A DNA stretch of 39,123 nt from Candidatus Aenigmatarchaeota archaeon (GTDB lineage Archaea; Aenigmatarchaeota; Aenigmatarchaeia; Aenigmatarchaeales; Aenigmatarchaeaceae): assembly GCA_018221065.1 (NCBI GenBank), contig JAAOXY010000082.1, forward strand, positions 1 to 39,123, given 5' to 3'. Position numbers and translations under genes: made by a program. The notes below the pieces were generated by a model. It did not search any database and was not told where the DNA came from. It was given only the letters and a program-made list of their open reading frames with translations. Of the stretch, positions 169-10,943 are shown one piece after another (the stretch's first letter is position 1; the number at the start of each line of letters is the position of its first letter).

Positions 169-336
169 ATGGACGAAAAGGATTGTAGTGGGTGTAATTA
201 TAGAAAGATTGCCGTACAATGTTACAAGTCTATAGATAAAAACTGTCCATGTGCTATATGTATTGTTAAAACAATGTGCTCTGAATCATGTAATGTATGG
301 CATCAATGGTATATAAATAGAGAGAGGAGACCCTAA
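169..336 (+). CDS. small Cys-rich protein, CxGC..CPCxxCxVKxMC family (55 aa)
   Basis: Hand-translated ORF below track cutoff: ATG 169, TAA 334-336. MDEKDCSGCNYRKIAVQCYKSIDKNCPCAICIVKTMCSESCNVWHQWY.. Stop abuts the ATG of the next paralog. Confidence 0.6.
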   Translation: MDEKDCSGCNYRKIAVQCYKSIDKNCPCAICIVKTMCSESCNVWHQWYINRERRP

Positions 337-521
337 TGGATGAAAACTGTGATGGATGTATATGGAACTATGATGGATCACTGTGTGTAAAGTGGCAGGA
401 TGGAAACTGTCCATGTGGGAGATGTGTCGTTAAACCGATGTGCCAGGATCCATGTGACACATGGGGATTATGGTATACAATAGAACATGCAAAAAAACAA
501 AGAAAGGATGGGTGGATATAA
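336..521 (+). CDS. small Cys-rich protein, same family (61 aa)
   Basis: ORF track. MDENCDGC..GNCPCGRCVVKPMCQDPCDTWGLWY carries the full motif. Confidence 0.7.
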   Translation: MDENCDGCIWNYDGSLCVKWQDGNCPCGRCVVKPMCQDPCDTWGLWYTIEHAKKQRKDGWI

Positions 522-1766: not shown

Positions 1767-1937
1767 TTACACCTCCACCTTTAGATTTTGTATTCTCCAA
1801 TATGTGTTTTCGATCAGTTCTTCCTGGTAAACTTCGGTTTGATAACTGCTATCAAGTTCCTCAATCACTTTGAAGAACACATACGAAGCAGCTAAGAATA
1901 ACCAGCCAATGATTATAAGCACGATTGTTTTTTTCAT
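1767..1937 (-). CDS. small membrane protein (56 aa)
   Basis: Hand-translated: MKKTIVLIIIGWLFLAASYVFFKV.. 57 codons with no internal stop. GGGGGATAAATACT precedes the ATG. Confidence 0.5.
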   Translation of the reverse strand: MKKTIVLIIIGWLFLAASYVFFKVIEELDSSYQTEVYQEELIENTYWRIQNLKVEV

Positions 1938-1942
1938 AGTAT

Positions 1943-2155
1943 TTATCCCCCATATTTAAAGTCTTCTACCATTTCATAGATGATGAGATATAACCTGAAC
2001 ACTGCAAAGAGTATCCACACAACACCAACTATCACTCCAATAAGAGAGAACATAATCCAAACCGGATCCGCAAACATAAATCGAACCAAGTTTATAGATA
2101 CTAGCAGGGTTACAGATACATATAGAGCGACTTTCATGAAATTAAAGAAATTCAT
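1943..2155 (-). CDS. membrane protein (70 aa, 2 predicted TM)
   Basis: ORF track. GGAGGTG RBS. Hydrophobic segments. Confidence 0.65.
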   Translation of the reverse strand: MNFFNFMKVALYVSVTLLVSINLVRFMFADPVWIMFSLIGVIVGVVWILFAVFRLYLIIYEMVEDFKYGG

Positions 2156-2191
2156 TTTTTCACCTCCCTATAGAGTTTTTATATAGACCGT

Positions 2192-2449
2192 TTATGATGC
2201 GAGTCCCATAGGAACTCTTCCCTTATATGCCTTTAATGTAATCAGTGGAGAGACCGTTATACCACCTTCCATAAGCTTCTCCACAATCGGTCTATAGGGA
2301 ACCAATATATCGTCGAATATATGACCGCATATATCGCACTTTGTATATTCGCCCCTGATGGTTAATGCAAGACCCTTTGTAGGACTCTTATGGGGCATGT
2401 CAATAGACTTACATCTGTTACATTTGATTGAAAATGGTAAGTATGCCAT
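2192..2449 (-). CDS. zinc-ribbon-like protein (85 aa)
   Basis: ORF track. CNRC ... CDIC pairs. GGAGGGATATACACT precedes the ATG. Promoter cassette 50 nt upstream. Confidence 0.65.
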   Translation of the reverse strand: MAYLPFSIKCNRCKSIDMPHKSPTKGLALTIRGEYTKCDICGHIFDDILVPYRPIVEKLMEGGITVSPLITLKAYKGRVPMGLAS

Positions 2450-3126: not shown

Positions 3127-3159
3127 TCTCCCGGTCGCGCTTTGCGGGGCCTGTCGAGA
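3127..3159. repeat. GC-rich hairpin element, copy 1
   Basis: TCTC-CCGGTCGCGCTTTGCGGGGCCTGTC-GAGA. Starts 12 nt below the stop of 3171..3410. Near-identical copies at 4884 and 6356. Confidence 0.6.
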
Positions 3160-3170
3160 ATGTCCCTTTA

Positions 3171-4790: not shown

Positions 4791-4883
4791 GTTCCATGGC
4801 TCCTCCAGCTTATGATTATTTACCTCCTTTATTTAAAAAAAGAGACGGGGCTGGCGTGCTCACACCCCCCGATCTCTTTTCTC

Positions 4884-4919
4884 ATCCTCCGGTCGCGCTA
4901 TGCGGGGCCTGTCGAGGAT
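4884..4919. repeat. GC-rich hairpin element, copy 2
   Basis: ATCCTC-CGGTCGCGCTATGCGGGGCCTGTC-GAGGAT with a perfect 6-bp outer stem. Sits inside what looks like an interrupted terminator module (AAAAAAAGAGAC ... CTCTGCTAACTATC). Confidence 0.6.
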
Positions 4920-4943
4920 ACCTCTGCTAACTATCATAATGTA

Positions 4944-6152: not shown

Positions 6153-6339
6153 CTCAATATTTTCCTTCGCATATGTAATTGTCCCATTCAGGACAGCAGT
6201 CATTATTTGCCTTTTGATCAGGATTACATCTCATTACTTTCATCAAACAAATATTACATGGTCATGATTCATCATTAAAAGTATAACATATTAAATCCTC
6301 TATACTATAAAGAGGACACCCCTCACAATTCTTAGACAT
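6153..6339 (-). pseudogene. disrupted Cys-rich family member (in-frame TGA plus 1-nt frameshift)
   Basis: MSKNCEGCPLYSIEDLICYTFNDES-TGA(6262-6264)-PCNICLM, then a +1 shift into KVMRCNPDQKANNDCCPEWDNYICEGKY*. Span is 187 nt (3n+1). Confidence 0.55.
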
Positions 6340-6355
6340 AAAATAATCTCCTTTT

Positions 6356-6391
6356 ATCCCCCGATCGCGCTTTGCGGGGCCTGGTGGGGAT
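6356..6391. repeat. GC-rich hairpin element, copy 3
   Basis: ATCCCC-CGATCGCGCTTTGCGGGGCCTGGT-GGGGAT with a perfect 6-bp outer stem. Directly below the stop at 6393. Confidence 0.6.
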
Positions 6392-6392
6392 T

Positions 6393-6548
6393 TTATCCAC
6401 CAACGGGTTTTCTGTGGGATCTGGGCGGACTGTTGTATTGATAAGAAACGTACCGTTTTTTACTTTTCTTGTATTTGTGGATAACGAAAGGACTGATAAC
6501 AATGATTGTAGCGATGGTTGCATAAAGTGAAATCAAGAATAGATCCAT
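6393..6548 (-). CDS. small membrane protein (51 aa)
   Basis: Hand-translated codon by codon: MDLFLISLYATIATIIVISPFVIHKYKKSKKRY.. GGAGGAGATAAAAA RBS. Promoter core 47 nt upstream. Confidence 0.45.
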   Translation of the reverse strand: MDLFLISLYATIATIIVISPFVIHKYKKSKKRYVSYQYNSPPRSHRKPVGG

Positions 6549-6943: not shown

Positions 6944-7077
6944 TTGCTTTCTTCCTCTTTATCGTCTTTGTATTTATCGATTGCATCTTTAGCTATTTTC
7001 TGAGCAGTCTTCCATAATCCAACTTCAAGGGAAACTATTTTATTAAGAGCATTTAATAACTCACCAATCGAAGCCAT
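6940..7077 (-). CDS. hypothetical helical protein (45 aa)
   Basis: Hand-translated, 46 codons. ATGA stop/start overlap with 6659..6943. Its ATG overlaps the end of 7061..7267. Confidence 0.4.
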   Translation of the reverse strand: MASIGELLNALNKIVSLEVGLWKTAQKIAKDAIDKYKDDKEEESK

Positions 7078-7267
7078 TGTATCTTTCCTTTCTGCTTTTA
7101 TTTTGTTTTTTCTTAATATAATAATCTTTAATAGTTAAGATGATTGCTATAATTCCACATAAGATAGCCCATGCCACTAGAAAATCAAAGTCATATTTTG
7201 GTTTAGATATTATTCTTAGGAATACAGCAACAACAAACATACTATAGAAAGTTACTTTAATAGACAT
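7061..7267 (-). CDS. membrane protein (68 aa)
   Basis: ORF track. AAGGAGGATAAATTA RBS. Two hydrophobic segments. Confidence 0.65.
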   Translation of the reverse strand: MSIKVTFYSMFVVAVFLRIISKPKYDFDFLVAWAILCGIIAIILTIKDYYIKKKQNKSRKERYNGFDW

Positions 7268-7291
7268 TAATTTATCCTCCTTTTAAAAAAA

Positions 7292-7321
7292 AGAGACATC
7301 CCTTAACTGGGAGATGTCTCT
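7292..7321 (-). terminator. terminator hairpin (AGAGACATC / GATGTCTCT)
   Basis: A-run followed by a 9-bp stem. Lies between 7338..7874 and 7061..7267. Confidence 0.55.
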
Positions 7322-7337
7322 CTATAAATCAAAGATC

Positions 7338-7874
7338 CTATTTATGGATTTTGATCTCGCCGACCTTTTCATCATCATTGACAATCATAACAGTTATTCC
7401 TGTTAATGTCTCATCATTGAATCTCATGTATATCAAGCTGACTTCCTCAACAATTCTATTATTGCTGATCCCTACTCCAGTGTTAAATCCAAAGAATAAA
7501 CCTCTTTGGGTGCGTGTAGTTTGGGTTCCGGCTGGTGTCCCACAGTAATACTTCACTCTATCTATGGGATCGCCTTTTTTAATTTCCTTCCCATCACATT
7601 TTAGGACATTGTCTGATATATCAATTTTGCCCCTATGCCTTTCTGCGGCATCAGATTCAGAGACTCCAACAGCAATCATAAGAGCAACACCAATGAAGAA
7701 AAATATTACTGCTATACAAAACCATCGAATCATCAATCTTTTTAATTGTATTACAATGGGATCCTTCAAACCATATCCTTTTCTTAATCTGTTCTCCCGA
7801 TCTTTTTCAAATGGACTTGCTTTTAGTAATGCAACAATTGCTAGAATCATTGCTAAAGCACCTAGAATAATCAT
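7338..7874 (-). CDS. membrane-anchored protein (178 aa)
   Basis: ORF track. GGAGGTGTCATT RBS. N-terminal hydrophobic segments. Confidence 0.75.
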   Translation of the reverse strand: MIILGALAMILAIVALLKASPFEKDRENRLRKGYGLKDPIVIQLKRLMIRWFCIAVIFFFIGVALMIAVGVSESDAAERHRGKIDISDNVLKCDGKEIKKGDPIDRVKYYCGTPAGTQTTRTQRGLFFGFNTGVGISNNRIVEEVSLIYMRFNDETLTGITVMIVNDDEKVGEIKIHK

Positions 7875-7903
7875 AATGACACCTCCTTTTAATTTAAATT
7901 AGG

Positions 7904-7973
7904 TACCCCGCAGAGGGGTCGAACCTCCTGTGCCGCTTCGTAAAAGAACGGCTGCTCCTAACAGCAACGGGGT
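7904..7973 (-). tRNA. tRNA-like element with a non-canonical anticodon arm
   Basis: Minus-strand read: a 7-bp acceptor stem (ACCCCGT/GCGGGGT), U8, a D-loop GG, a T arm GGAGG-TTCGACC-CCTCT, and a discriminator A followed by CC. The anticodon arm has either a C.A mismatch with loop UUUUACG, or a perfect 5-bp stem CCGUU/AGCGG with a 9-nt loop CUUUUACGA. Confidence 0.4.
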
Positions 7974-7980
7974 ATGATAA

Positions 7981-8520
7981 CTATCCCAATCTACTATCAT
8001 GATCAAACATTTTAACAAATTGTTTTGCCATACCTTTTACTTGGCCTTGTAGTATAATTCCCCAAGTGTCTCTTATTTTTTTTACTGAAAGAATCTCAAG
8101 TTTCTCAAATTCCATTTCCCCCACTTCGACATACATTCGGGCAAGAATGTGACATATTGAATCTCCCTCTGAAACTGATCCGATGATATTCAAACTCTTG
8201 AAATCAACTCCTCCTCCTGCTTCAGAAGCCATCTCTACTGAGTTACGTAAGAAATTTGCGAAGAAGTCTATATCAGACATTTCTTTTATATCTTCTATGG
8301 TTTTTTCACTCCCAAAGAGCCCTTCAAAAAGGCCTGCCGAAAACTCTTCAGGGAATTCTACAGAAGATGCTTCTAATGGGGATGTTATCATAGATTTAAA
8401 CTCTTTCAATGCTTCTGGAGTATACAGTTTAGCAACCTCGTTCCATTCCTTCTTCTGTAGCTTTATAAAATACAATTTGGCCAAGAATTCTTCCGATTTA
8501 ACTACATTGTCTTTTACCAT
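7981..8520 (-). CDS. hypothetical acidic protein (179 aa)
   Basis: ORF track. GGAGGAGATATTACA RBS. Promoter core 40 nt upstream. Confidence 0.75.
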   Translation of the reverse strand: MVKDNVVKSEEFLAKLYFIKLQKKEWNEVAKLYTPEALKEFKSMITSPLEASSVEFPEEFSAGLFEGLFGSEKTIEDIKEMSDIDFFANFLRNSVEMASEAGGGVDFKSLNIIGSVSEGDSICHILARMYVEVGEMEFEKLEILSVKKIRDTWGIILQGQVKGMAKQFVKMFDHDSRLG

Positions 8521-8559
8521 TGTAATATCTCCTCCTGATAAAATAAGATTTTGTTTATT

Positions 8560-8581
8560 AGTAATTAATATATATAGAATA
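8560..8581 (-). promoter_or_regulatory. early promoter-like cassette core
   Basis: AGTAATTAATATATATAGAATA. Confidence 0.5.
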
Positions 8582-8596
8582 AGTCGCTAAAAATAA

Positions 8597-8806
8597 CTAT
8601 CCGACCCGACCATAAACTGGTGGCAAACCAAAGAATCTTCGAGCATTATCAATTGTATCCAAACTATTAGAGTCTATATATTCAAGCAATAGAGAACAAT
8701 CCTTAGACCGTGCTAGATTGGTCACATCCTCAAAAGGGAAAGTACCGATTAAACTTTTACATATAGCTAATACTATACAATTTTTACATGGGACATCAGT
8801 CATCAT
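8597..8806 (-). CDS. Cys-containing protein, PCKxCIxxAIC subfamily (69 aa)
   Basis: ORF track. MMTDVPCKNCIVLAICKS.. Confidence 0.7.
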   Translation of the reverse strand: MMTDVPCKNCIVLAICKSLIGTFPFEDVTNLARSKDCSLLLEYIDSNSLDTIDNARRFFGLPPVYGRVG

Positions 8807-8972
8807 AAGTATTTTTCTTTCTATGACTAAGAAGTCTCATAGATAAAAATGGATGACCGATTTGATCTCTACACCATTTATGCATCGCATCCTCATCTTC
8901 GAACTCCTTCTCCCAAGGCTTCCCGTCAGGAGTTTCCTCATTATATGTTTGGAACGTTCCTATAATTGTCAT
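8796..8972 (-). CDS. hypothetical protein (58 aa)
   Basis: Hand-translated, 59 codons: MTIIGTFQTYNEETPDGKPWEKEFEDEDAMHKWCRDQIGHPF.. Overlaps the start of 8597..8806. Confidence 0.45.
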   Translation of the reverse strand: MTIIGTFQTYNEETPDGKPWEKEFEDEDAMHKWCRDQIGHPFLSMRLLSHRKKNTYDD

Positions 8973-9010
8973 AGATTTAATCCTTTCCTTTTATTAGTTT
9001 CATTAGATTT

Positions 9011-10537: not shown

Positions 10538-10708
10538 TTAATGAAATGTGAAATTTTCAAATTCCATTCCCAAAAGTTCAAGAGGCATATCTTCATCTAT
10601 GAGCGTTTCAGCTAGGCGTTTATTCTCTAACCATTCTTTTATCACTGGACACATATCACGGCATTCATGTCTACCGGGACATATAGCACAAGGACTATTT
10701 GGATCCAT
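10538..10708 (-). CDS. small Cys-containing protein (56 aa), C-half-like motif PCAIC..C..MC
   Basis: Hand-translated, 57 codons. GGAGGTAATTCGA RBS. Promoter core 40 nt upstream. Preferred over the antisense track ORF 10548..10730. Confidence 0.55.
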   Translation of the reverse strand: MDPNSPCAICPGRHECRDMCPVIKEWLENKRLAETLIDEDMPLELLGMEFENFTFH

Positions 10709-10747
10709 TCGAATTACCTCCTTAAAATAATTAAGATTTTGTTTATT

Positions 10748-10769
10748 AGAAATTAATATATATAGAATT
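10748..10769 (-). promoter_or_regulatory. early promoter-like cassette core
   Basis: AGAAATTAATATATATAGAATT. Confidence 0.5.
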
Positions 10770-10775
10770 AAGAAC

Positions 10776-10943
10776 TTAACTTAATTTTTTAGATTGGTTT
10801 TTATACCACTCATCCCAACTTTCACATCCATAATCACACATCATTTTAACAAGACAATTCGTACATGGACATGAACCATCTTGAATTTTATAACACCTTA
10901 TAGCTATTGTTTTATATGAGCACCCATCACATTTATTCCTCAT
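10776..10943 (-). CDS. small Cys-rich protein, family member (55 aa)
   Basis: Hand-translated: MRNKCDGCSYKTIAIRCYKIQDGSCPCTNCLVKMMCDYGCESWDEWY.. Confidence 0.6.
   Translation of the reverse strand: MRNKCDGCSYKTIAIRCYKIQDGSCPCTNCLVKMMCDYGCESWDEWYKNQSKKLS

Follow-up and report, generated by a model that had tools for sequence, protein, structure and literature searches.

The stretch of DNA considered here, hereafter the window, is an entire contig of 39,123 nucleotides (C40), one of 109 contigs in a 644-kb bin that is 77.7% complete and is assigned to Candidatus Aenigmatarchaeota. On its minus strand, at 7904-7973, lies a short element resembling a transfer RNA (tRNA), which is the subject of this report; its first base, A1, is at 7973 and its discriminator base, A73, at 7904, followed by CC at 7903-7902. 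As the original prediction, made from the letters of the sequence, had described, the element lies on the minus strand between two co-oriented genes, designated P0002 (8520-7981) and P0001 (7874-7338), and the gap between these genes is free of the repeated intergenic cassette which is found upstream of P0002 (8510-8597) and which matches many intergenic sites of a relative, L025. The element begins 7 nucleotides (nt) past the TAG stop of P0002 and ends about 15 nt ahead of GGAGG. The features of the locus are given below in the order in which the minus strand is read; L numbers denote loci that carry homologs of P0002, and differences between copies refer to the six pairwise comparisons among four full copies of the element, which fall into two subgroups.

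7981-8520, minus strand: upstream gene P0002, 179 aa, NTF2-like fold; homologs at 69-76% identity, with the element after the stop in every close homolog
7974-7980, minus strand: 7-nt spacer UUAUCAU from the TAG stop to A1, with U at -1; identical in the window, L025, L026 and L061, and UUAACAU in L053
7967-7973, minus strand: 5' strand of the acceptor stem, ACCCCGU; 0/7 differences in all six comparisons, and also present at the cut end of L026
7953-7966, minus strand: D arm UGCU-GUUAGG-AGCA, starting from U8, its loop ending in AGG (the G18/G19 equivalents); stem kept across copies
7932-7952, minus strand: 21-nt hairpin in place of an anticodon arm, GCCGUUC-UUUUAC-G(A)AGCGGC, in which ARAGORN places its nominal UUA
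7929-7931, minus strand: short variable region, ACA in the window and AUCA in L025 and L053
7912-7928, minus strand: T arm GGAGG-UUCGACC-CCUCU; at most 1/17 positions differ between copies
7904-7911, minus strand: 3' strand of the acceptor stem, GCGGGGU, plus A73; 0/8 differences between copies
7875-7903, minus strand: 3' trailer and conserved ribosome-binding region, CCUAAUUUAAAUUAAAAGGAGGUGUCAUU, with GGAGG at 7886-7882; conserved in all four loci
7338-7874, minus strand: downstream gene P0001, 178 aa, a predicted membrane protein; homologs at 72-77% identity
7290-7323, minus strand: strong intrinsic-terminator-like hairpin of 13 bp with a T run behind it, closing the two-gene unit

Read from 7973 to 7904, the minus strand is ACCCCGU-U-GCUGUUAGGAGCAGC-CGUUCUUUUACGAAGCG-GCACA-GGAGGUUCGACCCCUCU-GCGGGGU-A, then CC. 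The upper half of a tRNA is readily recognised in it, and the features that had been listed beforehand (a 7-bp acceptor stem, U8, a D-loop GG, a T arm GGAGG-UUCGACC-CCUCU, and A followed by CC) are borne out both by the sequence and by the drawing that ARAGORN made of it; the acceptor stem ACCCCGU/GCGGGGU includes one U.G pair, and the T arm has a 5-bp stem with a loop of the form UUCRA. The T-arm motif GGTTCRANYCC occurs a single time in the 39-kb contig, at 7915-7925, as GGTTCGACCCC. CCA is not encoded, the bases after A73 being CCU in the window and UCA in L025 and L053.

The lower half departs from a tRNA. ARAGORN called one gene in the whole window, a tRNA-Stop with anticodon tta at 7902-7973 of the minus strand (72 nt), and drew it with the 7-bp acceptor stem, a single linker nucleotide, a D arm GCUG/CAGC, a normal T arm, and an anticodon arm containing a C.A mismatch (positions 31/39), the loop UUUUACG and C at position 37. 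Running ARAGORN had been proposed as a check on the aberrant anticodon arm, and its outcome, a tRNA-Stop(tta) with a C.A mismatch, is not a normal tRNA; the tRNA models of Rfam likewise fail on it. No tRNA reached the gathering score when the window was searched with Rfam, and the best match to the tRNA clan at relaxed thresholds was tRNA-Sec, with 15.6 bits and E = 1.6 against a gathering threshold of 47. Two drawings of the anticodon arm had been offered by the original prediction, and both can indeed be made, but they are a single register and differ only in whether C.A is counted as a pair; one pair of the supposedly perfect 5-bp stem is U.G. At minimum free energy the window copy folds as a cloverleaf (-28.9 to -30 kcal/mol, z = -2.6), in which the anticodon-arm region pairs over 7 bp, with one A bulged out, and closes on the 6-nt loop UUUUAC; this hairpin is weak, at -6.8 kcal/mol.

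Searches with P0002 and P0001 covered 5.8 billion proteins and yielded a handful of homologs for each. Three more full copies of the element were found on metagenome contigs, at L025 (10545-10620), L053 (456-530) and L061 (302-374), and the contig of L026 ends after the first 7 nt of the element. Every full copy begins 7 nt past the stop of the P0002 homolog, ends about 14-16 nt ahead of GGAGG, and is followed by a conserved ribosome-binding region, UUAAAUUA(A/C)AAGGAGGUGU. In L025 an extra gene of 91 aa (10648-10923) is inserted between the element and the P0001 homolog and uses the conserved ribosome-binding region; because the downstream gene is thus a different one, the element goes with the end of the upstream gene and with the ribosome-binding region, not with P0001.

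For the comparison of the four copies, base pairs were tabulated by hand in a script; MAFFT could not put the hairpins of the two subgroups into structural register. All four sequences fold as cloverleaves at, or no more than 0.2 kcal/mol from, the minimum free energy, with no non-canonical pair. Change is distributed very unevenly along the element. The acceptor stem, including A73, has 0/15 differences in all six comparisons and the T arm 0-1/17, whereas the D arm differs at 4-7 positions per 15-17 nt, with its stem still paired, and the hairpin at 6-11 per 21-22 positions; overall, the lower half differs at 24-52% of positions, against 0-1/32 in the upper half, in every comparison. The D arm had been described as canonical and its loop GG is present, but the canonical stem (10-13/22-25) is not the conserved register: the one common to the homologs is UGCU/AGCA, starting from U8, with the pattern U(G/U)CU(U)...(A)AG(C/A)(A/G). 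In L061 the D stem shows a compensatory change from G-C to U-A, and the loop ends in AGG in 4/4 copies. The hairpins that stand in place of an anticodon arm are as follows, with the loop in square brackets.

Window: GCCGUUC[UUUUAC]G(A)AGCGGC
L061: GCC-UU-CCC[UUUUC]GGG-UC-GGC
L025: GCACCCCG[GUGA]CGG(U)GGUGC
L053: GCACCCCA[ACGAA]UGG(U)GGUGU

Their loops are 4-6 nt long and unrelated in sequence (UUUUAC, UUUUC, GUGA and ACGAA), and a 7-nt loop can be drawn in the window copy only. Several of the hairpin pairs have changed on both sides and are nevertheless paired: C-G to A-U, G-C to C-G, U-A to C-G, and G-C to A-U. A canonical 7-nt anticodon loop with U33 and a purine at position 37 is not kept among the homologs; ARAGORN found no tRNA in L025, L053 or L061, the window copy being the sole one called, and no Rfam tRNA model matched the L053, L025 or L061 copies at E <= 10. 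The label "tRNA-Stop(UUA)" is an accident of the loop of the window copy. The element is not the tRNA-like domain of a transfer-messenger RNA (tmRNA) either: G3:U70 is absent, pair 3-70 being C-G, and ARAGORN reports no tmRNA in the window.

Identity between the window and L025 is 83% along 12 kb and 81% at the third codon positions of P0002. Under a uniform model of 19% divergence, the 1/34 changes in the upper half would arise with P = 0.007 and the 11/21 changes in the hairpin with P = 0.0006, and the contrast between upper half and hairpin in this comparison gives Fisher p = 3e-5. A hairpin divergence of this size was reached by 1.4% of the 21-nt windows of the window-L025 alignment. In a control in which the same number of substitutions was placed at random, 0-8% of the sequences reached the observed hairpin energy, and 0-2.4% did so while folding as one hairpin across the whole arm. 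In each pair of copies, third codon positions have diverged more slowly than the D arm and the hairpin. Taken as a whole, this comparative pattern makes it highly probable that the locus holds a conserved, non-decoding tRNA-like element; as judged from the four copies, its upper half is tRNA-like and its lower half is non-decoding.

The contig itself looks like a bacteriophage, to judge from its gene content: it carries genes for an ATP-dependent DNA ligase, a collagen-like tail fibre, a radical-SAM enzyme and a glycosyltransferase, uses GGAGG ribosome-binding sites, and has a PF07963 pilin in a syntenic relative and GH108 lysins adjoining distant homologs. The bin's own tRNAs have an encoded CCA and contain introns, and for these reasons look archaeal (DPANN-like); the phage contig was probably mis-binned with an archaeal bin. 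Crude calling of open reading frames (ORFs) gave 86 tightly packed genes under the standard code (table 11), and 57/86 of them have TAA as their stop. No other tRNA is present on the contig, so the element is not part of a tRNA cluster, and when modules of an acceptor plus a T arm were sought by a custom scan in the window, in L025 and throughout the remainder of the bin, the element was the only one on each phage contig. The element is thus carried singly by a small clade of environmental phages. From the arrangement of the genes, the element and its two neighbours would form one bicistronic transcript.

What, then, might a tRNA shape that cannot decode be doing between two phage genes? We favour, with a probability of roughly 0.55, the reading that it is a tRNA-derived RNA which is unable to decode, is kept for its tRNA shape, and would be processed by host ribonuclease (RNase) P and RNase Z. 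The parts that are invariant or kept are a 12-bp acceptor/T stack, the T loop UUCGA, the elbow-forming D-loop GG, A73, U at -1, and the lack of an encoded CCA. In tRNA maturation such parts are the determinants that three bacterial enzymes use, namely RNase P, RNase Z and the CCA-adding enzyme; an anticodon is required by none of these. Because the invariant parts coincide with these determinants, the host would most likely cut at A1, by RNase P, and after A73, by RNase Z. If the transcript were cut at the two ends of the element, each cistron would have an mRNA of its own, and a tRNA mimic of about 70 nt, open to CCA addition, would be freed. The layout of stop codon, 7 nt, element, about 15 nt and ribosome-binding site, within a unit closed by a terminator, suggests just such a pair of cuts. 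More distant P0002 homologs (37-40% identity) lack the element, and after two of them, in L057 (1971-2034) and L058 (979-1042), a terminator made of a hairpin and a run of seven T stands exactly at its spot; a terminator in this place would fit a role for the element in forming the 3' end of the upstream mRNA. Of the four explanations that the original prediction had put forward, an RNase P or RNase Z signal splitting the polycistron is the one that the comparative data favour, with cleavage itself being predicted from the sequence.

Several points weigh against this interpretation. Conservation as high as that of the upper half is not exceptional: in the alignment of the window with L025, along which mismatches are clustered, 12-21% of stretches of the same length reach it, taken as an empirical background. 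The robust signal is the uneven pattern in six comparisons together with the pairing that is kept, rather than the conservation of the upper half alone. Four full copies in two subgroups make for weak covariation statistics. The hairpin has changed at 11/21 positions versus about 19% at third codon positions, which a simple structure-only constraint does not predict, and a pure punctuation role leaves this faster-than-synonymous change of the lower half unexplained and gives room for a decoy acting in trans. Finally, the acceptor stem would be unwound for a short time whenever a ribosome terminated 7 nt upstream.

Three processes could underlie the rapid change of the hairpin: its replacement, diversifying selection, and template-switch mutation, which in quasi-palindromes can mimic compensatory change. 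The element may also act in trans as a tRNA mimic or decoy, processed and CCA-tailed, whose acceptor/T half binds a host tRNA-binding factor while its lower half is under diversifying selection; this would add to processing by RNase P and RNase Z and is compatible with it. A frozen upper half beside a D arm and hairpin that outpace third codon positions in each pair, a hairpin divergence that ranks in the top 1.4% among 21-nt windows of the window-L025 alignment, and the retention of the element in L025 despite a different downstream gene are all as such a role would have them, and a tRNA-targeting defence toxin, a processing enzyme or a synthetase are candidates for the partner. No partner protein is evident, however, P0002 having an NTF2-like fold without an RNA-binding signature; no tRNA-repair or CCA-adding gene was found in the searches made; and four sequences cannot tell positive selection from replacement or template switching. 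On balance we regard a decoy as unlikely, albeit worth keeping in view, and its more elaborate form, in which the excised, CCA-tailed RNA engages a factor that reads tRNA ends or the tRNA elbow and the lower half is caught in an arms race, as decidedly doubtful. The opposite view, that the element is a decaying tRNA pseudogene without present function, merely inherited in a narrow clade, draws on the tiny family (four full copies, with none in IMG/VR or the GTDB genome contigs), the non-canonical D arm, the weak hairpin of the window copy, and the upper-half conservation that, taken alone, is not significant against the empirical background. Simple decay is nevertheless difficult to reconcile with change as uneven as 0-1/32 versus 24-52% in six comparisons, with at least 5 base pairs that have changed on both sides and are still paired, with a hairpin that rarely survives random substitutions, and with a cloverleaf at or near the minimum free energy in 4/4 copies. 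We consider it improbable; the "degenerate tRNA" of the original prediction holds insofar as the element is tRNA-derived, but a drifting pseudogene is at odds with the compensatory changes and the region-specific constraint.

The two remaining explanations fare far worse. A working suppressor tRNA, reading UAA with the anticodon UUA or shifting the frame by +1 at nearby disrupted genes through an expanded loop, is suggested by the ARAGORN label tRNA-Stop(tta), by the 9-nt loop CUUUUACGA that can be drawn if C.A is left unpaired, and by the disrupted copies of a Cys-rich family in the neighbourhood. In one of these an in-frame TGA at 6262-6264 of the minus strand replaces the first Cys of a CPC motif, the frame being otherwise open; no other in-frame stop was seen in a gene of the family. 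Yet TAA is the main stop codon, ending the majority of the crudely called ORFs of a contig that is densely filled with genes under the standard code, C stands at position 37, and UUA is not conserved, for which reasons the element is not an ochre suppressor, as the nominal anticodon had hinted; positions 31/39 form a C.A mismatch, a lone linker nucleotide follows the acceptor stem, and the three homologs have 4-5-nt loops, lack UUA and are not called as tRNAs. Nor is it a +1 frameshift suppressor, because of those short homolog loops and because the disrupted genes need four unrelated events (TGA readthrough, a CCU-A shift, an opposite frame change and a shift at a G6 run), none of which matches the loop. 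The original prediction had itself rated the frameshift link as weak, rightly so, since the shift sites (CCU-A, G6 run, TGA) are heterogeneous and do not match. We judge any suppressor function very improbable. Equally hard to credit, or harder still, is a remnant of the attP type, that is, a partial copy of a host tRNA kept for site-specific integration. The acceptor and T arm do resemble metagenome tRNA-Arg(CCU/UCU) genes, but this is likeness and not identity, an identical 3' half of a tRNA being absent from the viral, metagenome and genome scans; moreover, the cloverleaf is complete, with its 5' acceptor strand and D arm also conserved. The absence of a tyrosine integrase disfavours such a remnant: no PF00589 match lies on the contig, the bin's only one being on contig C57, and the ten largest ORFs matched no integrase or recombinase family, serine recombinases having had no dedicated search.

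The resemblance to tRNA-Arg bears instead on where the element came from. A pattern scan of metagenomes gave 25 matches, of which 21 were ordinary tRNAs, mostly tRNA-Arg(CCU/UCU), and none was a relative of the element; the tRNAs that match the acceptor pattern share its GGAGG/CCUCU T stem, although the search pattern itself fixed most of the shared positions. Because its acceptor and T arm resemble those of tRNA-Arg(YCU), descent of the element from a phage tRNA-Arg or a similar tRNA is plausible. The same kind of scan over GTDB genome contigs returned a single match, in Novosphingobium, and three pattern scans of IMG/VR (for the exact 3' half, for a degenerate acceptor plus T arm, and for the T arm alone) gave 0 matches each. 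Megablast of window positions 7000-9000 against GenBank phages found no match, and a distant-mode search with the L025 element found three 32-nt matches at chance level only, in mycobacteriophages. Synteny was followed through the DNA ligase to 24 loci at 32-35% identity; none has the element, and one has a tRNA, tRNA-Arg(UCU).

Several known RNAs invite comparison. The mascRNA and the MEN-beta tRNA-like RNA, as well as the tRNA-like RNAs of murine gammaherpesvirus 68, are excised by RNase P and RNase Z, are CCA-tailed, and do not serve translation. They share with the window element a tRNA-shaped module within a longer transcript (from which, here, excision would be the predicted step), but they are eukaryotic or belong to an animal virus and use other host machinery; the Rfam family of mascRNA and MEN-beta, RF01684, had no match in the window at E <= 10. 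The RNAs C and D of phage T4 have tRNA-like features. Like them, the window element is phage-encoded, non-decoding and linked to the tRNA-processing pathway, its stability and processing being predicted; unlike it, they are longer and lie in a tRNA gene cluster, whereas the window element stands alone between two protein genes. The function of these stable T4 RNAs, also called species 1 and 2, is unknown (PMC9697503). Canonical phage tRNAs, including the suppressors of recoded phages (RF00005), have in common with the element the acceptor stem, the T arm, the D-loop GG, the discriminator and a CCA that is not encoded; the element, however, fails RF00005 and is without a conserved 7-nt loop, a purine at 37 or a conserved anticodon, and occurs where TAA is the main stop.

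Similarity is greater to the t-elements of plant mitochondria, substrates of RNase P and RNase Z that are defined by the T-arm motif GGTTCRANYCC in a cloverleaf of non-canonical form (PMC1920247, Forner et al. 2007). The window element likewise has this motif within a non-canonical, non-decoding cloverleaf with an acceptor stem, and it stands at what would be an mRNA boundary. The t-elements lie beside mRNA ends in polycistronic transcripts, as the window element would, and a 5' cut by RNase P and a 3' cut by RNase Z have been proposed for both, having been partly shown for t-elements. The window element differs in that it lies in a bacteriophage operon, as a single copy tied to the 3' end of one gene, and in that its lower half is hypervariable yet paired, with cleavage predicted from its sequence. 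The thousands of phage RNA candidates in a 2023 survey include "tRNAs or tRNA-like structures", which were left uncharacterised there (PMC10690425). What is new here is an element that occurs once, inside an operon, and has a tRNA-like shape but no decoding ability, its upper half being frozen and its lower half hypervariable. A single-copy tRNA shape between two phage cistrons would be the bacterial-virus counterpart of mitochondrial tRNA punctuation and of plant t-elements. The locus also illustrates that what a tRNA finder reports in a phage as "tRNA-Stop" or as a suppressor can turn out to be a look-alike that does not decode; where such calls are counted in a survey of stop-codon recoding, conservation of the anticodon loop among relatives should be checked. 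With its upper half invariant and its lower half changing fast, the element offers an experimental handle on whether host tRNA-processing enzymes set the ends of phage mRNAs or make tRNA mimics.

Of the flanking genes, P0002 has a structure model with a predicted local distance difference test (pLDDT) score of 82 and Foldseek matches to NTF2-like domains, and gave no Pfam or PHROG match; neither the fold model nor the Foldseek matches contained a suggestive RNA-binding signature. The predicted fold also resembles the N-terminal domain of PBP2a/PBP5 and YchJ-type proteins. Between relatives, codon positions 1 and 3 of P0002 diverge about equally, which suggests relaxed or positive selection. 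P0001 and P0002 are not paralogs of each other. Two of the distant loci, L054 and L055, share about 1.2 kb that includes a distant P0002 homolog (P0006, 598-1146) with a leader resembling a signal peptide or lipobox; beyond the shared stretch their contexts differ and are bacterial, with a ROK kinase in one and LpxC plus DciA in the other, and the P0006 gene may lie at the edge of a mobile element.

Within contig C40, the only 36-nt stretches with a G+C content of at least 66% are the palindrome copies and the tRNA-like element (3127-3167, 4839-4927, 6353-6394 and 7900-7942). Kinship of the element with the phage's GC-rich palindrome cassette was considered and dismissed, since the hairpin sequences show no similarity to it. 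Elsewhere in the bin, on contig C57, an AT-rich tRNA-Val(UAC) without an encoded CCA (316-388, minus strand) adjoins the bin's only tyrosine integrase (1826-2344, minus strand), and this locus looks like a separate integrative element.

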